Below are positions 33,640 to 52,621 of a DNA stretch of 64,000 bases, piece by piece. Under the pieces are notes generated by a model. It saw only the letters and a list, made by a program, of their open reading frames with translations. It had not been told where the DNA came from and ran no database searches. The stretch's first letter is position 1, and the number at the start of each line of letters is the position of its first letter. The translations under genes were made by a program, and so were the position numbers. Source of the stretch: Deltaproteobacteria bacterium (lineage in GTDB: Bacteria > Myxococcota_A > UBA9160 > PR03); contig JAPSFT010000001.1 in NCBI GenBank assembly GCA_035063765.1, positions 7,497 to 71,496 of the forward strand. The letters are read 5' to 3'.

Positions 33640-36168
33640 TCAGCCGGACGAAGCAGCCAGCGCGAGGGCGGCCTCGATGATCGCGAGGTGCGAGTAGGCC
33701 TGCGGCGTGTTGCCGAGCGAGAGCGTGGCGACGGGGTCGTACTGCTCGGAGAGCATGGCGGTCGGCCCCGCGCAGGCGGCCATCGCTTCGAAGAGCGCGC
33801 GGGCGTCGGAGCGGCGCCCGAGCGACAACAGGGCCTGCACGAGCCACGCGCTGCACAGGTGGAAGCCGCCCTCGCTGCCCGGCAGCCCGTCGTCCGCGCG
33901 ATAGCGGAAGACGGTCGGCCCCTCTCGCAGCCCCTGCTCCACCGCCTCCACCGTCGCGCGCCAGCGCGGGTCGGCTGCCGGCAGCAGGCCCGAGAGCCCG
34001 ACCGCGAGCGTGGCGGCGTCGAGGTCGCTGCCGTCGTAGGCCGCGGTGAAGGCGCCGGGCTGCTCCTTCCACCCGTGCTGCAGGACGTCCGCGGCGATGC
34101 GGTCCGCGAGCTCGCGCCAGTCGGCGCGCTCCCGGCCGTAGAGCTCGGCGATGCGCACGCCGCGATCGGCCGCGATCCAGCACATCACCTTCGAGTGCAG
34201 GTGGTGGCGCGGCGGGCGGCGGATCTCCCAGATCCCGTGATCCGGCTCCTGCCAGCGAGCGGCCACCGCCCCCACCAACCCCTCGACGAGCCGCCAGTGC
34301 TCCGAGGAGAGCGGCGCGTCGCGTTCGGCCAGCAGCGCCACCAGCTCGACGATCGGTCCGAACACGTCGAGCTGGAGCTGGTGGGCGGCCAGGTTCCCGA
34401 CCCGCACCGGGCGGCTGCCGCGATAGCCGGGCAGCTCGCCGATCTCGGCCTCCGAGCCGAGCGCTTCGCCCCCGACACCGTAGAGCGGCTGGAGTCGCTC
34501 GGGCGCAGCGATCCGGTCGACCACCGCGAGCACCCAGCCGAGGTAGTGGAGCGCTTCGCTCGTGCTGCCGAGCCGCACCAGCGCGGCCGCCGCGAGCGCG
34601 CCATCGCGGAGCCAGCAGTAGCGGTAGTCCCAGTTCCGGATCCCGCCCGGGTACTCGGGCAGGCTGGTCGTCGCGGCCGCGGCGATCGCGCCGGTCGGGC
34701 CGTGGCAGAGGGCCTTCAGCACGAGCGCACTGCGCCGGATCCGTTCGCCCCCCTCGCCTGGTACGACGAGGCCGCCGGCCCACGACGACCAGAACAGCTC
34801 CGTCTGGCGCTCGCGTTGCTCGGCCGGGGGCTGGCTCGCCCGCAGGCTGCCGGTTCCGTAGCGCAGCTCGAGCTCGATCGGCCCCGCGTCGAGGTCGAGC
34901 TCGGCGCGTGCAGTCTGGTGGGGGCCTTCGTCCGCGATCGTCCAGCGTACCCCCGGTGCCCGCAGCACGATCGGGTCGTTGCTCGGCTCGATCGCGAGCC
35001 CGCCGTCGAGCGCGCGCAGCCGGGTCGGGATGCGGCCGAAGTCGAGACGCGGTGCCAGCTCGACGCCGACCCGACCCTGCCCCTCGATGCGGCGCACGAG
35101 GTCGGTCCGACCCGCACGCAGATGGGGGCGACCGCCGGAGGCGTCGAGGAAGTCCACCACCCGGAAGCGTTGCCAGTGCGTCTCGAGCACGAAGGAGTCG
35201 CCGATCCAGCGCTGCCCGTGCGGGCGCTCGCCGTCGAGGGCCAGCACGGAGAAGTGTCCCGCGGCCGGGCCGCCGAGCAGCTCCGCGAAGAGTGCCGGCG
35301 AGTCGAGCCGCGGCAGACATAGCCAGGTGATCCGCGCGGCCGGCGTCACGAGCGCGAAGGTGCGCTGGTCGGAGAGGCAGGCATGGTCTTCGATCGGGAC
35401 CGCGCCAGCGCCCGCGAGCCACGCGGCGCGCAGCTCCGCGAGCTGCGCGAGCAGCCGCCCCACGGCCTCCGGATCCGGGATCCGCTGGATCGCGAGCGAG
35501 GAGCCTTCTCCGACCTTCACGGCCAGATCGGGCCCCGAGAGCGTCGCGAAGGCATCCTCGTCGGTGCGATCGTCGCCGACGAAGCAGACCGCGGTGGCGC
35601 CGACGCGCTGGCGGAGCTGGGCGAGCGCCATCCCCTTGTCGGTGGAGAGCACGGCCAGCTCGACCACCTTCTTGCCGTGGCGCGTGAACACGCCCTCGAG
35701 GGCGCCGGGGCCCTCCCGGACGGCGCGCAGCGCCTCCTGGGCGAGATCCTCGGGCGCCTCGCGGTAGTGGAAGGCCACGCTCGCGGGCTTCTCCTCGAGG
35801 CGTGCGCCCGGCAGGCGCGCGGCGATCCCCGCCAGGTCCTCGCGCACCCGCTGGCGCAGCGCGCGCGCCTCGTCCGGCAGCGAGCCCACGAAGTCCGGGT
35901 CGAACTCGCTGCCGTGGCTCCCGACCAGGTGCACGTCCTCGGGCTCACCGATCATGCCGGCCAGGTCGCGCAGCGCGCGGCCCGAGATCACCGCGACGTG
36001 GGTGTTGGCGAGACCCGCGAGCTGGCGCAGCGCCACCACCGACTCGCGCAGCGGCTGTGCCGCCGCCGGGTCCGGGACGATCGGCGCGAGCGTCCCGTCG
36101 TAGTCGGTCGCCACGAGGAGCACCGGCGTGCGGGCCAGCGCGGCGAGCCGGCGCTCGAGGTCGCTCAT
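33640..36168 (-). CDS. otsB: bifunctional trehalose-6-phosphate phosphatase (OtsB, HAD) fused to glycoside hydrolase family 15 (glucoamylase/trehalase-like) domain
   Basis: ATG at 36168 is in frame with ORF 33640..37470. The N-terminus reads LLVATDYDGTLAPIV ... GDDRTDEDAF. The C-terminal roughly 600 aa carry the GH15 pattern (NWDYRYCWLRDGA, LQLDVFG, WEIR, LSEQYDP). ATGA overlap with otsA. Confidence 0.88.
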   Translation of the reverse strand: MSDLERRLAALARTPVLLVATDYDGTLAPIVPDPAAAQPLRESVVALRQLAGLANTHVAVISGRALRDLAGMIGEPEDVHLVGSHGSEFDPDFVGSLPDEARALRQRVREDLAGIAARLPGARLEEKPASVAFHYREAPEDLAQEALRAVREGPGALEGVFTRHGKKVVELAVLSTDKGMALAQLRQRVGATAVCFVGDDRTDEDAFATLSGPDLAVKVGEGSSLAIQRIPDPEAVGRLLAQLAELRAAWLAGAGAVPIEDHACLSDQRTFALVTPAARITWLCLPRLDSPALFAELLGGPAAGHFSVLALDGERPHGQRWIGDSFVLETHWQRFRVVDFLDASGGRPHLRAGRTDLVRRIEGQGRVGVELAPRLDFGRIPTRLRALDGGLAIEPSNDPIVLRAPGVRWTIADEGPHQTARAELDLDAGPIELELRYGTGSLRASQPPAEQRERQTELFWSSWAGGLVVPGEGGERIRRSALVLKALCHGPTGAIAAAATTSLPEYPGGIRNWDYRYCWLRDGALAAAALVRLGSTSEALHYLGWVLAVVDRIAAPERLQPLYGVGGEALGSEAEIGELPGYRGSRPVRVGNLAAHQLQLDVFGPIVELVALLAERDAPLSSEHWRLVEGLVGAVAARWQEPDHGIWEIRRPPRHHLHSKVMCWIAADRGVRIAELYGRERADWRELADRIAADVLQHGWKEQPGAFTAAYDGSDLDAATLAVGLSGLLPAADPRWRATVEAVEQGLREGPTVFRYRADDGLPGSEGGFHLCSAWLVQALLSLGRRSDARALFEAMAACAGPTAMLSEQYDPVATLSLGNTPQAYSHLAIIEAALALAASSG

Positions 36169-37550
36169 CGCTCGAGCCCGGCCAGGAAGGAGCGCGCCCA
36201 GGCGTGGACGTCGTGCCGCGCGACGATCCGGCGCAGCGCCACCATGCGCCGCTCCTGCTCCGCCTCGGGCATCCCGACCGCCTCCACCATCGCGTCCTTG
36301 AGCCCCTCGACGTCGTAGGGGTTCACCTGGGACGCGCCGCGCAGCTCGTGCGCCGCACCCGTCATCTCCGACAGCATCAGCACGCCGCGCTCGTCGACGC
36401 GGGAGGCCACGTACTCCTTCGCGACCAGGTTCATGCCGTCGCGCACCGGTGTGACCAGCATCACGTCGGCGGTCCGGTACAGGGCGACCAGCTCGGGGAG
36501 CGAGAAGCTGCGGTGCAGATAGTGGACGGGGGCGCGGCCCACCTCGCCGAACTCCCCGTTGATCGAGCCCACCAGCCGCTCGACCTCGCTGCGCAGCGCC
36601 TGGTAGTCCTCCACCTCCTCGCGGCTCGGGACGGCCACCTGGACCAGCACGCACTGGCGCGGATCCAGGCGCTTCTCGCGCAGGAGCTCCTCGAAGGCCA
36701 GCAGCCGCACGTCGATGCCCTTCGTGTAGTCGAGCCGGTCGACGCCGAGCAGCACGCGCCGGGGGTGCCCGAGCCGGGCGCGGATCCCGGCGGCCATCCG
36801 GATCACCTCGGGGCTCTCGGCGACGCGCTCGAAGCGGGCCGTGTCGATCGAGATCGGGAAGGCCCCGAAGCGGCTCGCGTGGCCGTGGAGGCGCAGCTCG
36901 TCGCGCGCCCCCTCGGCACCCGCGTAGCGCCGGCACAGCACCGAGAAGTTGCGTGCGCCGACGACGGTCTGGAAGCCTACGACGTCGGCGCCCAGCAGAC
37001 CCTCCAGGATCTGGCGCCGCCACGGAAGCTGCGCGAAGAGCTCCTGGGGTGGGAAGGGGATGTGGAGGAAGAAGCCGATGCGCAGGTCCGGCCGCTGCTC
37101 GCGGATCATGAGGGGCACGAGCTGGAGGTGGTAGTCGTGCACCCAGACGATCGCGCCGGAGGCAGCCTCCTCGGTCGCGACCGCGGCGAAGATCCGGTTC
37201 ACCTCGACGTAGGCGGCCCACCAGGGCCGTTGGTACTGGGGAGGCCGCACGGCGTCGTGGTAGAGCGGCCAGAGCGTGCGATTGGAGAAGCCGTCGTAGT
37301 AGCGCTCGACCTGGCTGCGCGAGAGCGCTACCGGACGGAGCTGGATCCCCTGGCTCTCGAGTCGGCGCGGCGCGCTCGCGCCGCGGCCGGGCCAGCCGAC
37401 CCAGGTGCTCGAACGCTTGCGGAGGACCGGTCCGAGGGCGGAGACCAGGCCGCCCGGGCTCAGGTCCCACTCGTCCTCGCGGCCGCGCTGCGCGGTCACC
37501 GGAAGCCGATTCGAGACCACCACCAGCTCGCTACCCGCTCGTTTCGGCAC
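36165..37550 (-). CDS. otsA: alpha,alpha-trehalose-phosphate synthase (UDP-forming) OtsA
   Basis: 461-aa ORF with a GTG start. GT20 motifs are present: [41 protein letters not shown]. Confidence 0.95.
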
Positions 37551-37646: not shown

Positions 37647-38666
37647 ATGGCCGAACCCACCCTGCACTACGCCCGCACGCGTGACGGCTGGCGGCTGGCC
37701 CTGCACCACCGCGCGCCGGCGCGCGGCGGCCACGGCGCGGCGCTCCTGCTGTGTCACGGCATGGGCTCGAACCGCTTCAACATGGACGGGCCCGGCCGGG
37801 CGAGCCTCGCGCGCCATCTCCAGGCCCTGGGCTGGGACGTGTGGGTGCTCGAGCTGCGTGGCGCGGGCCTGTCGCGGCGCCGGCTGCGCTTCCCGCGCGC
37901 GAGCTACGGCTGGACCTTCGAAGACTACGTCCAACACGACGTGCCGGCCGCGGTCTCGCTGGTGCGACAGCTCACCGGCCAGGAGCGGCTCCTGTGGGTC
38001 GGCCACTCGCTCGGCGGGATGATCGCGTACGCCGCGATGATGACGCCCCTCGCCGATGCCTTCGCCGGCGCCGTCACGCTCGCGTCGCCGGGCATGACCG
38101 ACATCGGCCACGAGGCGCTCGACCGCTGGATCGCGCTGCGCCGGCTCTTGCGCTTTGCGCCGGCGCGGCTTCCTGCGCGCTGCGCGGCGCGGGCCGGCTC
38201 GCCCCTCGCCGGCGCGATCGCCCGCACCGTACCGACGCTGGTTCGCGACTGGCTCTGGCACCCCGACAACCTCGACCTCGACGTGGTGCGCTTCATGATG
38301 CGACACGGGGTCGAGGACCTGCCCCGCTCGCTGCTGATCGAATTCGCCCGCTGGTACGACGCCAAACGCATGAGCGACCGCTACCGGATCTTCAGCTTCG
38401 GCGACCATCTCGAGCGGGTCCGCGTGCCGATGCTGGTGATCGCCGGCGCCCGGGACCGGCTGACGCCACCCGCAGATCTGGCTCGCCTGGTCGAGCGACT
38501 GGGCTCGAGCGACAAGACCTTCTGGGTGGCAGGGCACGCGTCCGGCCTCGCCCACGAGTACAGCCACGTCGATCTCGTGCTCGGCCGCCACGCGCCCGAC
38601 GAGATCTACCCCGTCGTGGCCGCCTGGCTCGCCGACCACGCACCGGGAGCCGCGGGCCGGTCCTGA
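37647..38666 (+). CDS. alpha/beta-fold hydrolase
   Basis: ATG at 37647 is in frame with ORF 35802..38666. It has the nucleophile elbow GHSLGG, and the late acid/His region reads AGARD ... SHVD. Confidence 0.8.
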   Translation: MAEPTLHYARTRDGWRLALHHRAPARGGHGAALLLCHGMGSNRFNMDGPGRASLARHLQALGWDVWVLELRGAGLSRRRLRFPRASYGWTFEDYVQHDVPAAVSLVRQLTGQERLLWVGHSLGGMIAYAAMMTPLADAFAGAVTLASPGMTDIGHEALDRWIALRRLLRFAPARLPARCAARAGSPLAGAIARTVPTLVRDWLWHPDNLDLDVVRFMMRHGVEDLPRSLLIEFARWYDAKRMSDRYRIFSFGDHLERVRVPMLVIAGARDRLTPPADLARLVERLGSSDKTFWVAGHASGLAHEYSHVDLVLGRHAPDEIYPVVAAWLADHAPGAAGRS

Positions 38667-38669
38667 TGC

Positions 38670-39350
38670 TCAGCCCGGAGCGGTCTGGTGTACCAGCTCG
38701 CGCAGGCGTTCGGGCCGCAGGAGCACGATGCGGCGGTTGTCGCGCCCGATGAGCCCCTCGGCGGAGAGCTCGCGCAGGGTCTGGTTCACGGTCTGGCGGG
38801 TGGCTCCCACCAGCGTCGCGAGCTCGCTCTGGGTGATCGGGATGTCGATCACGCGGTGACCGTTCTCGGTCTGCCCGAAGTCGGCCGCGAGCTCCCCGAG
38901 CATGCGCGCGACGCGCGTGCGCACGTTGCGGAAGACCAGGTCCTCGACCCGGCTCTCGATCTTCTTGAGCCGATCGCCGATCTGGAGGCTCACCTGGAAG
39001 GCGAGCGCGGAGCGAGCCGCGAGCACCTGCTGGAAGTTCTCGCGCGGGATCTTCCAGACCGCCGACGCGCGCACCGCCTCGGCGAAGCTCTCGCGCGGAT
39101 ACTCGCCGAAGGCCGGCAGCTCCCCGAAGACCTCACCCGGCGCCACGTAGCCGAAGCTGGTCTCACCGCCTCCCTCCGAGAGACGATAGATCCGGGCGAG
39201 GCCAGCCTGCAGCAGGTACACCGACTGGGGCTGCCGGGTGGGCGCGAAGATCAGCTCGCCGCGCGCGAAGCGGCGCAGACTGGCACCCCGCTCGAGCTCC
39301 GCCAGCTCGTCGTCTTCCATCCGCGACAGCCACTCGATGGTGCGCATCAT
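38670..39350 (-). CDS. Crp/Fnr-family transcriptional regulator
   Basis: ATG at 39350 is in frame with ORF 38670..39821. It has a cNMP-binding-like barrel (GELIF ... VYLLQAGLARIY ... GEVFGE) and a C-terminal HTH (SELATLVGATRQTVNQTLREL). There is no N-terminal Fnr Cys cluster. Confidence 0.9.
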   Translation of the reverse strand: MMRTIEWLSRMEDDELAELERGASLRRFARGELIFAPTRQPQSVYLLQAGLARIYRLSEGGGETSFGYVAPGEVFGELPAFGEYPRESFAEAVRASAVWKIPRENFQQVLAARSALAFQVSLQIGDRLKKIESRVEDLVFRNVRTRVARMLGELAADFGQTENGHRVIDIPITQSELATLVGATRQTVNQTLRELSAEGLIGRDNRRIVLLRPERLRELVHQTAPG

Positions 39351-40018
39351 CCCCCCGCTCGGGGCGCCCTCGGCGCCCCTTCCTGGGATCCGCCCTCCGG
39401 CCGTTCCCGGGGCGGCGCCTCCGCCCCGGGAGCCTCGCGAGACGCTGCGTCCGGCGACCGCCAGACCCGCTCGCGCAGCGACTCGAACTCGCGGGTCAGG
39501 AAGTCGGCCACGTCGCGGCCCGCACGCTCCACCGAGGAGCGCAGCTCGGTGAGCGTCTCCTCCATCTCCACGCGCCGGCGCTCGCGCTGCCCGCGCCGGC
39601 GTCCGCTCTCGACGGCGCGCCGCGCCGCCTCGCCGAGGTCGTCGAGCTCCCGGCCGAGCTCGACCACGAGGTCGTCGAGGGTGACCAGGCCCGAGAGGCG
39701 GCCGTCGCGCAGCACCACGATGCGGCGCACGCGGGCCGTGCGCATGCGCTCCACCACGACTTCGATCGGGTCGTCGGCGCTCACCGTGACGAGCGGGCGG
39801 CTCATCAGCTCCGCGGCGCACTGCTTCTCGGCGCCAGCGCGGGCGACCACGCGGCAGGCGAGATCGCGATCGGTGACGATGCCCACCGGATGGTCCGCCT
39901 CGTCGACGATCACCACGCTGCCGACCGCGAAGTCGCCCATCAGCCCCGCAAGCTCGGCGGCGCTCGCGTCGAGCGGCGCGGTCGCGACCTCGGTGCGGTA
40001 GTAGTCACGCGTGCGCAT
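39347..40018 (-). CDS. CBS-pair protein with charged coiled-coil C-terminal extension (CBS-2)
   Basis: 223-aa ORF with two CBS motifs (VGIVTDRDL, GLVTLDDLV) followed by an Arg/Glu-rich helical tail. ATGA overlap with the crp start. Confidence 0.85.
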   Translation of the reverse strand: MRTRDYYRTEVATAPLDASAAELAGLMGDFAVGSVVIVDEADHPVGIVTDRDLACRVVARAGAEKQCAAELMSRPLVTVSADDPIEVVVERMRTARVRRIVVLRDGRLSGLVTLDDLVVELGRELDDLGEAARRAVESGRRRGQRERRRVEMEETLTELRSSVERAGRDVADFLTREFESLRERVWRSPDAASREAPGAEAPPRERPEGGSQEGAPRAPRAGG

Positions 40019-40021
40019 GGG

Positions 40022-40483
40022 TCACTTCCCTTCCGGCGCCGGACCGGGTCTTCCGGGGGACCGCTCCACGGGGGCCTGGGCCGCGGCCGCCGCGGCGACC
40101 CCCGCGAGCTCGCTCGCCACCAGACGCAGGATGTCGTCGGAGCTCAGGATGCCGACCAGCTCCTCGTCCGCGTTCACGATCGGGATCCGCCGTACGGACC
40201 GGCGCCGCATCAGGGCCGCGGCGGCGCGGAGCGACGACGTCTCGTGCATCACCAGGGGGTCGGTGCCGAACGCATCGACCACCCGCGTCGTGTCGGGGTC
40301 GAGTCCGTCGCGCAGCACGCGTAGCGCGAGGTCGCGATCGGTGACGATCGCGCGCGGGTGCGACCCGAGCAGCCCCACGAGGCACCCGACTCCCTCCTCC
40401 GCCATGCGCACGGCGGCGGCGCGCAGCGTGTCGCGCGCGTCGATCGTGCGGACGTCGCGCTGGCAGTAGTCGGCGATCGCCAC
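40022..40483 (-). CDS. CBS-pair protein (CBS-1)
   Basis: GTG at 40483 has GAAGGAGG 4 nt upstream and is in frame with ORF 40022..40603. CBS motifs are AIVTDRDLALRV and VGILSSDDILRL. It ends 3 nt before CBS-2. Confidence 0.85.
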   Translation of the reverse strand: MAIADYCQRDVRTIDARDTLRAAAVRMAEEGVGCLVGLLGSHPRAIVTDRDLALRVLRDGLDPDTTRVVDAFGTDPLVMHETSSLRAAAALMRRRSVRRIPIVNADEELVGILSSDDILRLVASELAGVAAAAAAQAPVERSPGRPGPAPEGK

Positions 40484-40524
40484 GGCCCCTCCTTCGCGAG
40501 CTCCCCATCGACGACCCGGGCTGG

Positions 40525-40540
40525 TGCAACCGCCATGCCC
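40525..40540 (-). promoter_or_regulatory. sigma-54-type (-24/-12) promoter candidate P1 for the CBS-1/CBS-2/crp operon
   Basis: The minus strand reads GGGCATGGCGGTTGCA, against the consensus TGGCAC-N5-TTGCW, with exact GG-N10-GC spacing. The predicted +1 is near 40514, 31 nt upstream of GTG 40483, with AGGAGG in between. Confidence 0.6.
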
Positions 40541-40666
40541 GTCTGCCCGTGAGCCCCGCGACGCCCTGGGTCGGCGGTTGTGGCGTTCTGGCGCATAGGA
40601 CATTGTCGGCGGGGCGACCTGTCGCGCTGGCCCTGGCGAGCCGGGTCACCGGCTCCCTCCCGCTCC

Positions 40667-40683
40667 GGGCATGGCTCGTGCAA
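40667..40683 (+). promoter_or_regulatory. sigma-54-type promoter candidate P2 for CBS-3
   Basis: The plus strand reads GGGCATGGCTCGTGCAA with exact GG-N10-GC spacing. It shares the GGGCATGGC core with P1. The predicted +1 is near 40693, 30 nt upstream of ATG 40723. Confidence 0.55.
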
Positions 40684-40722
40684 GCTCGCGCACGCTGGAG
40701 CCGACCGGGAGCCGCCGAGCCG

Positions 40723-41160
40723 ATGCCCCTCTACGACCGTCCCGTCTCGACCATCATGCGCCGCGAGTTTGCGAGTCTGCACCCGGACGACCGCCTGGAC
40801 CTCGCGGAGCAGATGATGAAGGTCGGGCGCGTGCGCCACCTGCCGGTGCTGGGCCCGGACGGCCACGTGGTCGGCATCGTCTCGAGCCGCGACCTGCTCG
40901 AAGCCTCGCTCAGCAGCGTGCTCGATCTCGATCCCGCTTCGCGGCGCGGGTTCCTCCGCTCGGTGGCGGTCGCCGATGTGATGCGGCCGGAGGTCGAGAC
41001 GGTCGCGGAGAGCACGTCGCTGCTCGGCGCGGCGAGCCGGATGATCCGCCACAGGATCGGCTGCCTGCCGATCGTGGGCCCCGACGGTGTCATGACCGGA
41101 CTCGTCACCGAGACCGATCTGCTGATCGCGGCCTATCTCCCGGAGCCCGCTCCGCGCTAG
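40723..41160 (+). CDS. CBS-pair protein (CBS-3)
   Basis: ATG at 40723 is in frame with ORF 40549..41160. CBS motifs are VGIVSSRDLL and GLVTETDLL. Confidence 0.85.
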   Translation: MPLYDRPVSTIMRREFASLHPDDRLDLAEQMMKVGRVRHLPVLGPDGHVVGIVSSRDLLEASLSSVLDLDPASRRGFLRSVAVADVMRPEVETVAESTSLLGAASRMIRHRIGCLPIVGPDGVMTGLVTETDLLIAAYLPEPAPR

Positions 41161-41182
41161 CTAGGCGCGCGGCGCGCGAGCG

Positions 41183-41590
41183 TCAGCGATCGAGCGCGAG
41201 GCGCACGAAGTCGCCCTCGGTCAGGATGCCCACGAGCCTGCCCTTCGCGACCACCGGCAGGCAGCCGAGCTTGCGCTCCAGCATGATGCGTGCCGCCTCG
41301 ACCAACGCGGTGTCGGGCTCGACCGTCACCGGATCGTTGGTCATCACCTCCTTGACGAGCAACATGCCCATCACCTTCTGCTGCGCGTGCGCGCCGTAGC
41401 CGAGCGCACGCGCCAGCGCGCCCCGGAACAGGTCGCGCTGCGAGAGCACGCCGACCACCTCCCCCGTCGCCTCGTCGAGCACCGGCGTATGGCGGATGCG
41501 CCCGAGCCGCATCAGGTCGTCCGCGATCACGAGCTGGTCGTTGCGCAGGACGGTCGCCACCTCGGTGCTCATCACGTCACGGACCTTCAT
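41183..41590 (-). CDS. CBS-pair protein (CBS-4)
   Basis: 135-aa ORF with the strong SD GGAGGGAG. The sequence reads MKVRDVMSTEVATV ... VGVLSQRDLF ... VGILTEGDFV. Confidence 0.9.
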   Translation of the reverse strand: MKVRDVMSTEVATVLRNDQLVIADDLMRLGRIRHTPVLDEATGEVVGVLSQRDLFRGALARALGYGAHAQQKVMGMLLVKEVMTNDPVTVEPDTALVEAARIMLERKLGCLPVVAKGRLVGILTEGDFVRLALDR

Positions 41591-41661
41591 CGAACTCCCT
41601 CCTCGTGCGCGCCGGACAACCCCTTGCTGCGCCTGGAGTGCAGGAGGATACTGGCTCGCTG

Positions 41662-42939
41662 GTGAAGGAAGGGCTCGACGACCGGCTCGACTACCTGGGG
41701 CTGACCGAGGACGATCGGCAGCTGCTCGCCCGCATCGGGCCGCTGCTCGAGCGCCACGCCGACCGCTTCGTCGCCGCCTTCTACCGCCACCTGCTCTCCT
41801 TCGACGAGACCCGGCGCCTGCTCGCCGACCCCGCGGTGACGGAACGCCTGCTGGGCAAGCAACGCGAGTACCTCCTGAGCCTCGCGACCCCCGGGCTCGA
41901 CGCGACCTACCTCGAGGAACGGATCCGGATCGGTGCCGTGCACGCCCAGGTCGGACTCGGCCCGCGCTACTACCTCGGTGCCTACGCGCTCTACTTCTCG
42001 CTGCTGGCGCCGGTGATCGCCTCCGATTGCGAGGGCGACACGGAGCTCGTCCAGCGCACCTTGAGTGCCCTCGTCAAGGTGCTGTTGCTCGACGCCGAGC
42101 TCGCGATGGAGTCCTACGTGGAGCGCCACGGGGAAGGGCTCACCCACCTGAACCGGGAGCTCGCCGCCGTGAGCCGCTCGCTCTCGCGCGAGGTCGAGGT
42201 CCAGGAGCAGGAGCTCCGGCAGACCCAGAAGCGCGCACGCGCCGCCGAGGACCTGGCGTCGGTCGCGACGCTCGTGGCGGGGCTCGCCCACGAGATCGGT
42301 ACGCCGATGGGGGTGATCCGTGGCCATGCGGAGGCGCTCGGCGGCGCGGTCCAGGGCGAACGGGCGCAATGGCGGCTGCGCACGATCCTGGAGCAGATCG
42401 ACCGCATCTCGAGCATCATCCGCGCGCTGCTCGACGTCGCGCGGCCACGCGAGCGCGTCCTGGTGCCGATCGAGCTCCCACAGGTGCTGGACAACGCGCT
42501 CGCCTTCCTGTCCGAGCGGATGCGGCGCCACGGGATCGAGATCGAGCGCCGCTACGACCGGGTGCCGGTGATCCACGGGGATCCCGACAAGCTCCAGCAG
42601 CTGTTCCTGAACCTGTTCCTGAACGCGGCCGACGCGATGCCCGACGGTGGACACCTTATCGTGTCGGTCGCGGCCTCGGATGGCCAGGCGGTCGGGATCC
42701 GGATCGCCGACGACGGCGTCGGCATCCCCGCCGCCGACCTCGAGAACCTGTTCACGCCCTTCTTCACGACCAAGCCGGCAGGCCGCGGCAGCGGACTCGG
42801 GCTGGTGGTCGCCCAGGGCATCGTCGCCGATCACGGCGGGCGCATCGAGGTGCTCAGCGCCCCCGGCCGCGGCACCGAGTTCGTGATCGAGCTGCCGCTG
42901 CGCGCTCAAACCGGGCCGGAGGGGCGGATCGGATCGTAG
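41662..42939 (+). CDS. globin-coupled sensor histidine kinase (protoglobin sensor + HisKA + HATPase_c)
   Basis: The N-terminal globin-coupled-sensor pattern reads LDYLGLTEDDRQLLARIGPLLERHADRFVAAFYRHL ... RIGAVHAQVGLGPRYYLGAY, giving a distal Tyr and a proximal His context. The H-box is LAHEIGTP, and N/G boxes are present (NLFLNAADAM, DDGVGI, GSGLGL). I prefer GTG 41662 as the start; the ORF-track start is GTG 41605. Confidence 0.85.
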   Translation: MKEGLDDRLDYLGLTEDDRQLLARIGPLLERHADRFVAAFYRHLLSFDETRRLLADPAVTERLLGKQREYLLSLATPGLDATYLEERIRIGAVHAQVGLGPRYYLGAYALYFSLLAPVIASDCEGDTELVQRTLSALVKVLLLDAELAMESYVERHGEGLTHLNRELAAVSRSLSREVEVQEQELRQTQKRARAAEDLASVATLVAGLAHEIGTPMGVIRGHAEALGGAVQGERAQWRLRTILEQIDRISSIIRALLDVARPRERVLVPIELPQVLDNALAFLSERMRRHGIEIERRYDRVPVIHGDPDKLQQLFLNLFLNAADAMPDGGHLIVSVAASDGQAVGIRIADDGVGIPAADLENLFTPFFTTKPAGRGSGLGLVVAQGIVADHGGRIEVLSAPGRGTEFVIELPLRAQTGPEGRIGS

Positions 42940-43334
42940 GCGCGGCGCAGGAGGTCGCTCTCGGTGAGCAGGCCGACCAGCCGCGGGCCGTCCGGGCCGG
43001 GCTCGACGATCGGCAGGCAGCCCGTGCGCGAGCGGGCGATCCGCGCCGCCGCCTCGTCGACGCTCATCGTGGTCCCGCCCGTCTCGGTGTCCGGCGACAT
43101 CACCTCTTCGACGCGCGTGCAGCGGCCGGCAAGGGCGGCCTCGACGAGGACCGCGAACGAGAGCACGCCGCGCAGGACCCCGTCGGCCACCACCGGGAGC
43201 TGGCGCAGGCGCGCCACCCGCATCATCTGGAGCGTCTCCGCGATCGAGGCACCCGGTGCGACGGAGAGCCAATGCCGCCGCATCACCCGAGCCACTTCGG
43301 CCCCGAACGTCCCCGTGCTTCCCTCGAACCCCAT
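42906..43334 (-). CDS. CBS-pair protein (CBS-5)
   Basis: 142-aa ORF with the motifs RGVLSFAVL and VGLLTESDLL. It overlaps the 3' end of the convergent kinase gene by 34 nt. Confidence 0.8.
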   Translation of the reverse strand: MGFEGSTGTFGAEVARVMRRHWLSVAPGASIAETLQMMRVARLRQLPVVADGVLRGVLSFAVLVEAALAGRCTRVEEVMSPDTETGGTTMSVDEAAARIARSRTGCLPIVEPGPDGPRLVGLLTESDLLRRAYDPIRPSGPV

Positions 43335-43346
43335 GCCGCCCGCAGG

Positions 43347-43362
43347 TGCAGACGGCGTGCCA
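43347..43362 (-). promoter_or_regulatory. sigma-54-type promoter candidate P3 for CBS-5
   Basis: The minus strand reads TGGCACGCCGTCTGCA with exact GG-N10-GC spacing. The predicted +1 is near 43336, only about 2 nt upstream of ATG 43334. Confidence 0.5.
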
Positions 43363-43472
43363 GCACCTCCCGGCGTCCCGGAGGCGGCGCGAGATCCAGA
43401 TCCGGGGCCTGATGCCTCGCTTCGTGTGCCAGGAGGGGTGCGATGCTGAGGCTGCGCGTCGTGAGCTGATTT

Positions 43473-43507
43473 GTCACATTCGGGTCATTTTGCCCTATAC
43501 GTGTGAC
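43473..43507. promoter_or_regulatory. inverted repeat GTCACA-N23-TGTGAC in the AT-richest patch between P3 and P4 (possible activator or Crp-type site)
   Basis: The sequence is gatTTGTCACAttcgggtcattttgccctatacgTGTGACctc. The arms are exact 6-mers. Confidence 0.3.
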
Positions 43508-43535
43508 CTCATCTGCAGCGCCCGTGCGTCGCGGG

Positions 43536-43551
43536 TGGCACGTAACGTGCT
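43536..43551 (+). promoter_or_regulatory. sigma-54-type promoter candidate P4 for the bEBP/USP/APH-P-loop/CBS-6 operon
   Basis: The plus strand reads TGGCACGTAACGTGCT with exact GG-N10-GC spacing. The predicted +1 is near 43562, about 4 nt upstream of ATG 43566. Confidence 0.55.
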
Positions 43552-43565
43552 CCTGGGATACCCCG

Positions 43566-44953
<1,388 letters not shown>

Positions 44954-44957
<4 letters not shown>

Positions 44958-45865
44958 GCCGCTTCCGGACGATCCTCGTCCCGACCGACTTCTCGGCCCA
45001 CGCGCACGCCGCGATCGAGCTGGCCCGCACGCTGGCTCACACAGGCGGCGGGGCGGTCCACCTGCTGCACGCCTACGAGGTGCCGCTCGGCACGATCTCG
45101 CCCTACGGCGTCGCGCTGCCCGACGGCCTGCTGGCGCAGGTGCGCGACGCAGCCGCGCGCCGGCTCGAGAAGGCGGCCCACGGCTTCGTCGAGGCGAAGG
45201 TCTCCTGCGAGACCCACGTCGCACACGGACCTGCCGCGGACGCGATCACCGAGGCGGCACAGCGCCTGCACGCCGACCTGGTCGTGATGGGCACGCGCGG
45301 GCTGAGCGGATGGAAGCACGCCCTGCTCGGCAGCGTGGCCGAACGCACCGTACGCAGCTCGCCCTGCCCCGTGCTGACCTTCCGTACGCCCGACCGCGCC
45401 GAAGGAGGATCCGTGGGCCACTTCCGCAAGCTCCTCGTGCCCCTCGACTTCTCGAAGCACTCCGACGCCGCCCTCGCGCTCGCGGTCGAGCTCGCGAGCG
45501 AGCACGCCGCCGAGGTCCACCTGCTCCATGCCTACGAGCTGCCCGCCGCCGTGACGATGGCCTACGGCGTCGCGATCCCCCAGGCGGTCTGGGACGGGGT
45601 CCAGGAAGCCGCCCTCGCGCGCCTCGAGGAGGGACGCAAGCGCCTCGAGGCGGCCGGCATCCGCGGCACCACGCACCTCGTGACGGGGCCCGCCGCAGAT
45701 GCCATCGCGCAAGCTGCCGAGAGCGTGGCTGCGGACCTGATCGTGATGGGCACCCGCGGCCTCACGGGGCTCAAGCACGTGCTGCTCGGCAGCGTCGCGG
45801 AGCGCACGATCCGCACCGCGCCCTGTCCCGTCCTCACGCTCAAGTCGGACGCGCAGGACGCCTGA
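44954..45865 (+). CDS. tandem universal stress protein (two UspA domains)
   Basis: GTG at 44954 overlaps the upstream stop (GTGA). There are two repeats of ILVPTDFS ... LLHAYE ... DLVVMGTRGLSG..H.LLGSVAERT.R...CPVLT. Confidence 0.9.
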
Positions 45866-47970: not shown

Positions 47971-48037
47971 TGGCCGGCCGGGCGAGCGCTCCCCCCGCCG
48001 CTCATCCCTCGCGCAGCGAACGGTAGGCGCGCAGGTG

Positions 48038-49149
48038 GCGGAGCGCGCCGGCCGGATCGCCGAGCCGGTCGTGGAGCCGCGCGTCGTGGCGGAGGTGCGC
48101 TACGCCGAGGGCACCCGCGACGGGCGCCTGCGCCAGCCCGTCCTGCTGCGCCTGCGCGAGGACAAGAGGCCCGCCGGGATCGATGCGCCGCCCGGCCCGC
48201 GAGGCGGGCGCCCGAAGGTCCCGCGAAGCCGAAGGAGAAGAGCACGAAACCGAAGCCCGGACACGAGCTTGTCCTCACGAACCTCGACAAGACCTTCTGG
48301 CCGGACGAGGGCCTCACCAAGGGCGACCTGCTCGGCTACTACCGCGCGATCGCCCCCTGGCTCCTGCCCTACCTGCGCGACCGCCCGCTCACGCTCGTCC
48401 GGCACCCGGACGGGATCACGGGCAAGGCGTTCTTCCAGAAGGACGCGCCCGCCTCGGCGCCCGCGTGGGTGCGGCGCGAGCGGCTCTGGAGCGAGCACGG
48501 CCGTCGCGAGATCCGCTTCTTCGTCGTGGACGACGTGGACGCGCTGCTCTACGTCGCGAACCTCGGCGCCATCGCGCTCCACGTGCAGGCGAGCCGGGTC
48601 GCCGACCTCGCGCATCCCGACTGGTGCATCCTCGACCTCGACCCCAAGGGCGCACCCTTCCGCGACGTCGTCACGATCGCACGTACCCTCCATGGGCTCA
48701 CCGGCGAGATCGGGCTCCCGGCCTTCCCGAAGACCAGCGGCTCGGCGGGTCTGCACGTGCTCGTGCCCCTCGGAGGGCGCCTCACCTTCGCGAAGGCGCG
48801 CACGCTCGCGGAGCTCCTCGCGCGCGAGGTGGTGGCGCGCCACCCCGGGATCGCGACGCTCGCGCGGCGCGTGGCTGCTCGCGGCGGGCGCGTCTACGTC
48901 GACACCGGCCAGAACGGGCACGGGAAGCTCCTCGTGGCGCCCTTCTCGGTGCGCGCGCTGCCCGGGGCGCCGGTCTCGATGCCGCTGCGCTGGAGCGAGC
49001 TCGGCCCGCGCCTCGACCCGCGGCGCTTCACGATCCGCAACGCGCTCGCGCGCCTGCGCCGGCTCGGCGAGGATCCCCTCGCGCCGGTCCGGGGCCCCGC
49101 GCCCGACCTGCTCGGGGCGCTCGAACGGCTGGCCCGGCGGGGCCGCTGA
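48038..49149 (+). pseudogene. ligD: LigD remnant: last ~40 codons of the ATP-dependent ligase (OB) domain, a frameshift, then an apparently intact primase-polymerase (LigD-Pol) domain lacking any ATG/GTG/TTG start
   Basis: One frame reads AEPVVEPRVVAEVRYAEGTRDGRLRQPVLLRLREDKRP, the ligase-domain C-terminus. The next frame reads PAKPKEKSTKPKPGHELVLTNLDKTFWPDEG ... CILDLDP ... SGSAGLHVLVP ... VYVDTGQNGHGKLLVAPFSVR. That frame has no canonical start between 47971 and GTG 48469. Confidence 0.6.
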
Positions 49150-52339: not shown

Positions 52340-52621
52340 ATGCCCCGCCGCTGCGAGCTCACCGGGACGCGCGTGTCGTTCGGCCACAACGTCTCGCACT
52401 CGAACCGCAAGTCGAGCCGGACGTTCGCGCCGAACCTCCAGAGCGTGTCGCTGCTCTCCGACGGCCTCGGCCGCTCCGTGCGCCTGCGCGTCTCGACGCG
52501 CGCGCTGCGCTCCGTCCAGAAGCGCGGTGGGCTCGACGCCTTCCTGCTCGGCACGCCCGACGACCGGCTTCCGCCCGAGGCCCTCGAGCTCAAGCGCCGC
52601 CTGCGCCGCGCGATCGGCTAG
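52340..52621 (+). CDS. rpmB: 50S ribosomal protein L28
   Basis: The sequence [34 protein letters not shown] is the canonical L28 N-terminus. Confidence 0.92.

Follow-up and report, generated by a model that had tools for sequence, protein, structure and literature searches.

Outward-facing sigma-54 promoters that share an activator and an intergenic region have been described before. The zraP and hydHG (zraSR) promoters of Salmonella are both ZraR-dependent sigma-54 promoters, with their boxes about 150 bp apart (PMC3844500). In D. vulgaris, OrpR (DVU2106) is bound to palindromes between the promoters of two divergent sigma-54 operons, orp1 and orp2, an arrangement described as synchronising both operons; IHF sites located between enhancer and promoters are required, and OrpR itself is sigma-70 dependent (PMC3897727). 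Back-to-back NtrA-dependent promoters sharing FhlA were reported for hyc/hyp (Lutz et al. 1990, as cited in PMC3844500). We describe a comparable region on a 64-kb stretch of contig JAPSFT010000001.1, from an uncultured myxobacterium (the whole stretch of 64,000 nucleotides is called the window below). Positions 40484-40722 of the window form a 239-bp gap separating two diverging genes for CBS-pair proteins, CBS-1 (GTG at 40483) and CBS-3 (ATG at 40723). Very probably, two outward-facing sigma-54 promoters lie in this gap and have a conserved two-site enhancer in common. The original prediction for this region, made from the sequence alone, had regarded divergent sigma-54 pairs served by one enhancer region as uncommon. 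This was not borne out, since orp1/orp2, zraP/hydHG and hyc/hyp are documented and we counted 18 diverging sigma-54 pairs across the window and related loci, at least 17 of them further pairs in the related loci.

In M. xanthus, a member of the same phylum, the NmpRSTU system comprises the protoglobin kinase NmpU and the NtrC-like regulator NmpR, with sigma-54 promoters and autoregulation (PMC11841059, PMC6211767). NmpU does not directly phosphorylate NmpR, and a hybrid kinase, NmpS, and a REC-REC protein, NmpT, are encoded with the kinase (PMC6211767). NmpR promoters carry two upstream dyads with 14-15 bp between them, about 30 bp centre to centre. The regulon, which was defined experimentally, includes a CBS protein, a universal-stress protein (Usp), a cbb3 oxidase and hemN-hemerythrin, together with autoregulation (PMC11841059). 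By comparison, the present locus appears to work like zraP/zraSR in its architecture and like the NmpR regulon in its content.

The locus shares with zraP/zraSR of E. coli and Salmonella two outward-facing sigma-54 promoters in one intergenic region, and the pairing of the activator's own operon with a small target gene. This layout is that of a second diverging pair in the window, between a further CBS gene (CBS-5) and the gene of an NtrC-type activator, and by extension that of CBS-1 and CBS-3. Among PDB relatives, the best match of the kinase core was ZraS (1e-39), while the activator matched NtrC1/NtrC4 and ZraR (ZraR 1e-81). Where zraP/zraSR has a periplasmic sensor of metal or envelope stress, the sensor here has a cytoplasmic haem-globin domain. 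The two also differ in their dyad sequence and in their targets, here CBS-pair proteins, and the CBS-1/CBS-3 pair is without an activator gene. The orp1/orp2 region is similar in having a divergent sigma-54 pair, one activator and palindromic sites between the promoters. It differs in that no A+T-rich IHF-like tract was seen by eye in the present gap, where the dyads are also closer to the promoters (-73 to -106), and the genes and signal are unrelated. As presented in PMC3844500, hyc/hyp is likewise a classic divergent sigma-54 pair with one activator and one intergenic region; there, FhlA is formate-responsive and not a response regulator, and the operons encode hydrogenase components.

The elements within the gap are the following.

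40525..40540, minus strand: predicted sigma-54 (-24/-12) promoter of the CBS-1/CBS-2/crp operon, GGGCATGGCGGTTGCA; predicted start 40514, leader 31 nt
40579..40595, no strand: dyad A, predicted activator (enhancer-binding protein) site, TGTGGCGTTCTGGCGCA; 15.6 bits, rank 2 of about 64,000
40599..40607, no strand: palindrome named in the original prediction, GACATTGTC; in the 14-bp spacer of dyads A and B, at the pseudo-symmetry centre
40610..40626, no strand: dyad B, weaker candidate second site, CGGGGCGACCTGTCGCG; 4.1 bits in the window, core invariant in the alignment
40667..40682, plus strand: predicted sigma-54 (-24/-12) promoter of CBS-3, GGGCATGGCTCGTGCA; predicted start 40693, leader 30 nt

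Near-identical public contigs with independent gene calls have products of 153 and 145 amino acids (aa) and a gap of 239 bp, all matching the window. Read directly from the sequence, both boxes are where the original prediction had placed them (minus strand, 40540 to 40525; plus strand, 40667-40682), and both have the exact GG-N10-GC spacing. Against TGGCACG-N4-TTGCW, the minus box agrees at 14 of 16 positions (2 mismatches) and the plus box at 13 of 16 (3 mismatches). The predicted starts were placed by taking the C of the GC element as -12, and the resulting leaders of 31 and 30 nt are those originally proposed. Each leader also contains the Shine-Dalgarno sequence that had been noted, strong before CBS-1 (GAAGGAGG, 40495 to 40488) and weaker before CBS-3 (GGGAG, 40707-40711, 11 nt 5' of the ATG). 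An Rfam scan of 38-46 kb gave one sub-threshold chance match and no known RNA element in the leaders. A scan for sigma-70 promoters and terminators in 39900-41700 found 0 against 0.0 expected, and has no power at 75% G+C.

The G+C content of the window is 74.8%. A search with the loose consensus, permitting up to 3 mismatches, returned 58 matches where 72 were expected, and is uninformative because the DNA is G+C-rich. The strict pattern GGCAYG-N5-TGCW was found 5 times in 64 kb against 0.65 expected, an enrichment of about 8-fold, and none of 100 shuffles reached 5. All five strict matches lie within 40525-43551: two are the CBS-1 and CBS-3 boxes, two form the second diverging pair and the fifth is inside another CBS gene, CBS-4. 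This fifth match (41280-41294) falls in CBS-4 coding sequence (codons AARIMLE) and is absent from four related loci (L001, L002, L037 and L042). We rejected it as a promoter, and it is probably a chance match or a non-productive intragenic site. Scored with a matrix derived from the locus, the minus-strand box at 41280-41295 reaches 16 bits, and it would point antisense to CBS-3.

The two boxes had also been credited with a shared core, the 9-mer GGGCATGGC. In the window this 9-mer is found only at the two boxes. Two or more copies appeared in 22 of 100 shuffles, and the boxes of orthologues differ (GGCACGGCG, GGCACGAGC). The core is unconserved beyond the -24 box, which is the only meaningful part of it.

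Ten alignable copies of the region were compared, comprising the window and nine orthologues with CBS-1 identities of 55-90%. One orthologue was taken from a genome collection (L001), one from a metagenome scan with CBS-3 (L081) and seven through CBS-1 homologues, of which 58 were found (L102-L108). Two further loci were left out, one because the gene call of its CBS-3 orthologue is over-long (L110) and one because it is without a diverging CBS-3 (L109). The module, in which CBS-3 diverges from CBS-1, CBS-2 and crp, is kept in all nine orthologues, and the gene order CBS-1/CBS-2/crp is preserved in L102-L108 and L110. An alignment of orthologous regions had been put forward with the original prediction as a check, and in it both boxes are present and diverging in all ten copies. 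Their forms across the copies are GGCAYR-N3-GTTGCA leftward and GGCAYR-N5-TGCA rightward.

Mean column identity in the ten-way alignment was 47%, and the intergenic flanks were otherwise unalignable. Invariant columns were confined to four blocks, namely the two promoter boxes and the two dyads. The leftward box block spans 40525-40539 (columns TGCAAC..T.CC), and the invariant columns of the rightward box are GGCA at 40668-40671 and TGC at 40679-40681. Dyad A reads TGnGrCG-TTC-TGGCGCA across the ten copies, and the core of dyad B (40611-40625, G.G.C-N5-G.C.C) is invariant. A near-identical strain (L100) has 7 single-nucleotide polymorphisms in the region, none of them in GG, GC, TGCA or the high-information positions of the dyads. 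This pattern is consistent with the model, though the changes are too few to count as a test.

One of several k-mers enriched 5' of the sigma-54 boxes of related loci was TGCCACA, seen 13 times where 1.0 was expected. A palindromic expectation-maximisation search of 78 regions upstream of sigma-54 boxes, from which the window and its two closest relatives were excluded, gave the 17-bp motif TGtGgCa-N3-tGcCaCA (7-N3-7, about 13 bits). Its log-likelihood ratio was 233, compared with 23-28 for shuffled regions and 106-119 for random regions of the same loci. When the held-out window was scanned (about 64,000 positions), the site at 43462-43478, beside the activator gene, ranked first with 18.2 bits and dyad A at 40579-40595 ranked second with 15.6 bits. 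The third-best match, at 52372 (11.8 bits), lies inside the ribosomal protein L28 gene (rpmB) and was rejected as chance. In three held-out related loci (L001, L037 and L081) the top dyad matches again fell in the corresponding intergenic regions. The common motif ties the CBS-1/CBS-3 gap to the activator's own promoter region, and it is chiefly on this ground that one activator is taken to serve both. Sites orthologous to dyad B, the weaker in the window, score 13.6 bits in L081 and 9.5 bits in L108.

The original prediction had pointed out that the space between the boxes leaves room for shared enhancer sites, and this agrees with the two conserved dyads found there and with the presence of their motif beside the activator gene. 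It had named a different sequence, GACATTGTC, as the candidate site, at 40597-40605. The palindrome is in fact at 40599-40607, within the variable spacer between the conserved dyads. It is unconserved (GATGACAGC in L001 and CTTCGCCGG in L081), its columns vary in the alignment, and we rejected it as an enhancer.

The two dyads are placed almost symmetrically. Relative to the minus and plus starts, respectively, the centre of dyad A (40587) is at -73 and -106 and that of dyad B (40618) at -104 and -75. Centre to centre they are 31 bp apart, about three helical turns. In L081 the corresponding positions are -72/-103 and -73/-104. With this near mirror symmetry, the proximal site of one promoter (about -74) is the distal site of the other (about -105), which suggests that one enhancer serves both. 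Among the orthologous copies, seven have dyad A 47-49 bp from the minus box, one has it at 58 bp and two at 69-71 bp; on the other side, eight copies have 78-81 bp and two have 89 bp between dyad A and the plus box. Judged from these sequences, the distance changes step by about one helical turn, as face-of-helix constraints on DNA looping would predict. Across loci L001-L045, dyads peak at -75, -85, -95 and -105 from the predicted starts, with adjacent dyads spaced 18-21 or 30-33 bp apart. This periodicity of about 10 bp holds over unrelated promoters of the regulon.

The surrounding genes and the second diverging pair are listed here in order of position.

38670..39344, minus strand: Crp/Fnr-family regulator, last gene of the leftward operon; Pfam cNMP_binding and HTH_Crp_2
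39347..40018, minus strand: CBS-2, CBS-pair protein, 223 aa; Pfam CBS 6.5e-23; starts 3 nt past the CBS-1 stop
40022..40483, minus strand: CBS-1, CBS-pair protein, 153 aa; Pfam CBS 1.2e-18; first gene of the leftward operon
40723..41160, plus strand: CBS-3, CBS-pair protein, 145 aa; Pfam CBS 1.6e-26; rightward target gene
41605..42939, plus strand: globin-coupled histidine kinase (Protoglobin-HisKA-HATPase by Pfam); external gene calls start at 41638
43347..43362, minus strand: predicted sigma-54 promoter of CBS-5 (42906-43334), TGGCACGCCGTCTGCA; left half of the second diverging pair
43462..43478, no strand: best dyad in the window, TGAGCTGATTTGTCACA; between the second promoter pair; 18.2 bits
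43536..43551, plus strand: predicted sigma-54 promoter of the activator gene, TGGCACGTAACGTGCT
43566..44957, plus strand: activator, NtrC-type response regulator/enhancer-binding protein, REC-AAA+-HTH_8; Pfam Sigma54_activat 5e-72, Response_reg and HTH_8
44954..45865, plus strand: tandem universal-stress protein; GTG start overlaps the activator TGA stop (GTGA, 44954-44957)

The genes crp, CBS-2 and CBS-1 run leftward, followed by CBS-3 rightward and CBS-4 leftward, the kinase rightward, CBS-5 leftward, and the activator and tandem Usp rightward. CBS-1, CBS-2 and crp form one operon, as the gaps between them are only 2-3 nt. The gene at 43566 had been taken for the activator, and its REC-AAA+ (Sigma54_activat)-HTH_8 composition agrees with this, as does the GAFTGA readable in its translation. 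Its GTGA overlap with the Usp gene indicates translational coupling in an activator-Usp operon. A sigma-54-like box, GGCACAGCGCCTGCA, occurs at 45256-45270 on the plus strand inside the tandem Usp gene, just 5' of the second Usp domain. The converging kinase and CBS-5 genes overlap by 34 bp at their 3' ends (42906-42939).

The sigma-54 box before the activator gene implies autoregulation of the activator-Usp operon, as in zraP/zraSR. The box of CBS-5 is kept in five related loci (L001, L037, L042, L033 and L017), and in related loci a diverging CBS gene beside the activator, where present, has its own box. Sites orthologous to the best dyad rank first in L001 and L037, and weaker dyads lie near the second pair at 43481-43497 and 43403-43419. 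A 19-nt block at 43448-43466, GAGGCTGCGCGTCGTGAGC, borders on the best dyad and runs into it; L001 has the block unchanged, and L037 agrees with it at 15 of 19 positions. The block is unexplained by the dyad matrix and may be the site of a second regulator.

The box precedes the activator start codon by 14-17 nt in about 15 loci whose alignment begins at residue 1 (among them L001, L004, L006, L011, L016, L018, L019, L023, L025, L033, L037 and L043), and it is within about 35 nt in about 30 loci. The predicted leader of the activator would then be only 4-7 nt, leaving no room for a Shine-Dalgarno sequence. These distances suggest a conserved, nearly leaderless sigma-54 transcript for the activator. 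CBS-5 may be similarly near-leaderless, as the window and L001 have 12-13 nt from box to ATG, but the gene may really start 13 codons further downstream.

A scan for the kinase, using one genome per species, found 79 loci, all in metagenome-assembled genomes (MAGs) of uncultured Myxococcota and of Nitrospirota type, with the best 72-73% identical. In about 40 of the loci the activator gene comes straight after the kinase gene or, in some, after a single intervening leftward CBS gene, and no gene for an NmpS/NmpT-like relay was found between the two. This suggests that kinase and activator form a direct two-component pair, unlike the four-component pathway of M. xanthus. Some of these Myxococcota MAG loci carry the depositor label Spirochaetales, and more distant versions occur in Nitrospira.

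For a count of the regulon, the first plausible open reading frame (ORF) after each strict sigma-54 box was taken from 47 loci, and the resulting 97 proteins were scanned against Pfam. The families found were CBS (27), the activator (22), hemerythrin (10), Usp (5), haem-copper oxidase subunit I (COX1, 4), Hsp20 (3) and cbb3-type cytochrome c (2). The CBS-1/CBS-3 gap would belong to a putative oxygen-sensing regulon of the uncultured myxobacterium. In L103, L105, L106 and L108 (about 1-840) the neighbours of CBS-3 are two genes of cbb3-oxidase maturation, for FixS/CcoS and a heavy-metal P-type ATPase. In L104 and L107 the neighbour encodes a ferritin-like di-iron protein, with weak Pfam matches to Phenol_Hydrox and Ald_deCOase. 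Both sets of neighbours fit an oxygen-related role of the module.

The likeness to NmpRSTU extends to a protoglobin histidine kinase with a REC-AAA+-HTH_8 regulator, two dyads and autoregulation. The content of the NmpR regulon is matched by the CBS, Usp, cbb3 oxidase and hemerythrin genes downstream of the boxes in the 47 loci. In the PDB, the globin domain of the kinase was closest to the globin-coupled sensor of Geobacter (3e-11) and to HemAT (1e-10); the matches at E <= 1e-10 included no globin chain of AfGcHK. Neither an NmpS nor an NmpT gene is present among the cluster genes at 38.6-45.9 kb (crp, five CBS genes, kinase, activator and Usp). The NmpR site GCGCA-N5-TGCGC, with up to 2 deviations, was found 220 times in the window against 231 expected, and never in 40484-40722 or 43335-43565. 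It coincides with the motif reported here only in the G..G / C..C at 5 and 7 bp from the dyad centre. A diverging double promoter has not been described for the mxan_4235/4236 region of M. xanthus. Because NmpS and NmpT are not in the cluster and the NmpR consensus is absent from both intergenic regions, we did not file the locus under the Nmp system.

A purely functional analogy, of a kind discussed in PMC11841059, can also be drawn to the DosS/DosT-DosR hypoxia regulon of M. tuberculosis, in which haem-based kinases control a stress regulon rich in Usp, with a CBS-pair protein and alpha-crystallin. The Usp, CBS and Hsp20 proteins are the counterparts here. DosR is a LuxR-type regulator at sigma-70-type promoters, without sigma-54 or an AAA+ activator, and the control regions are not homologous.

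We consider it likely that the gap is a compact bidirectional sigma-54 control region, with two outward promoters, a shared two-dyad enhancer and the activator encoded at 43566-44957. This was also the central reading of the original prediction, and the local enrichment of the boxes, their conservation over ten copies and the dyads support it. The sequences and their comparison show the boxes with their conservation, the dyads with their geometry, and the gene families; from these we infer which protein occupies the dyads, that both promoters fire, what the signal is and which sign the response has. Sigma-54 holoenzyme would bind the two -24/-12 boxes, reading leftward into CBS-1/CBS-2/crp and rightward into CBS-3. 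Dimers of the NtrC-type activator, encoded 3 kb away, would most likely occupy both 17-bp dyads and nucleate one ATPase oligomer able to loop to either promoter. Control of the activator probably lies with the globin-coupled (haem) histidine kinase encoded beside it. In that case O2 or another gas or redox signal would govern both transcription units, the activator's own operon and CBS-5, as well as genes elsewhere for hemerythrin, Usp, cbb3-oxidase and Hsp20.

Several observations weigh against this reading. All of the evidence is computational, and rpoN was not seen within the 64-kb window. The plus-strand box has 3 mismatches to the 16-nt consensus, the Shine-Dalgarno of CBS-3 is weak, and dyad B scores only 4.1 bits in the window. 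The dyads were assigned to the neighbouring activator by co-occurrence and by resemblance to the 17-bp layout of NtrC-type sites. In several loci (L103-L108) the module stands apart from any kinase/activator pair, so that the link is one of regulon rather than of gene adjacency. The third gene of the leftward operon encodes a Crp/Fnr regulator and stays with the module in L102-L108, and the TGTG...CACA ends of the dyads recall CRP half-sites. The boxes could thus be real sigma-54 promoters while the dyads bind another protein, either this Crp/Fnr regulator in a feedback loop or a different activator, and the NtrC-type protein nearby would not regulate the gap directly. We regard this as unlikely, as the same dyad motif occurs at -75 to -105 from the boxes in about 40 kinase/activator loci where no crp gene is seen close by, the top two dyad matches of the window link the gap to the activator's own promoter region, and sigma-54 promoters require an AAA+ activator regardless. 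In addition, CRP/FNR sites are of even length, whereas NtrC sites are of odd length, 17 bp, like the 7-N3-7 motif found here.

The weaker match of the plus box raises the question of whether both boxes are used. One might be productive while the other binds holoenzyme unproductively or is weakly used, its gene being transcribed mainly from a sigma-70-type promoter; non-productive and intragenic sigma-54 sites are described as common in E. coli in PMC4591121. That both boxes occur in 10/10 alignable copies, at fixed, helically phased distances to the dyads on both sides, makes this quite improbable, and no sigma-70-like promoter was found in the scan of 39900-41700, which has little power at this G+C content. 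Chance matches do occur, given that one of the five strict matches is in coding sequence and unconserved, and loose searches match often (58 against 72 expected). It is nonetheless very hard to credit that both boxes are chance matches in G+C-rich DNA without promoter function. The strict motif is enriched and clustered, the activator gene is encoded close by, and the two boxes are conserved over ten copies amid otherwise unalignable intergenic sequence.

Other features of the window outside the module include a trehalose-6-phosphate synthase gene (GT20, 36165-37550), a LigD-type primase-polymerase gene (47971-49149) and rpmB (52340-52570). The counterpart of the ORF at 37751-38666 in orthologous loci is an alpha/beta hydrolase, conserved there beside crp.

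The control design is already known, and the result is one of annotation level that does not overturn current understanding. Within these limits, the bidirectional control region offers a clean, conserved case of one enhancer for two sigma-54 promoters, with a fixed and helically phased geometry. As a compact model, it could help in asking how one AAA+ activator ring selects one of two closed complexes. A more speculative idea, which we put forward tentatively and think doubtful as a whole, is that of a 'short-circuited' Nmp pathway. In it, phosphate would go straight from the haem-globin kinase to the sigma-54 activator, without an NmpS/NmpT relay, and the output would pass through the phased, mirror-symmetric two-dyad enhancer (about -74/about -105), one ring firing two promoters. 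The module would be reused across the regulon, and the activator mRNA would be nearly leaderless, starting 4-7 nt before the start codon. If the direct wiring of kinase to activator is true, the O2 response could have the opposite sign to that in M. xanthus.

The locus would extend the myxobacterial oxygen-utilisation regulon (NmpR) to uncultured Myxococcota, with the haem kinase beside the activator and a different DNA site, and it points to a widespread kinase-activator pair in these organisms. The prediction that follows is that small CBS-pair proteins and a Crp/Fnr regulator would be first-line outputs of gas sensing in them.

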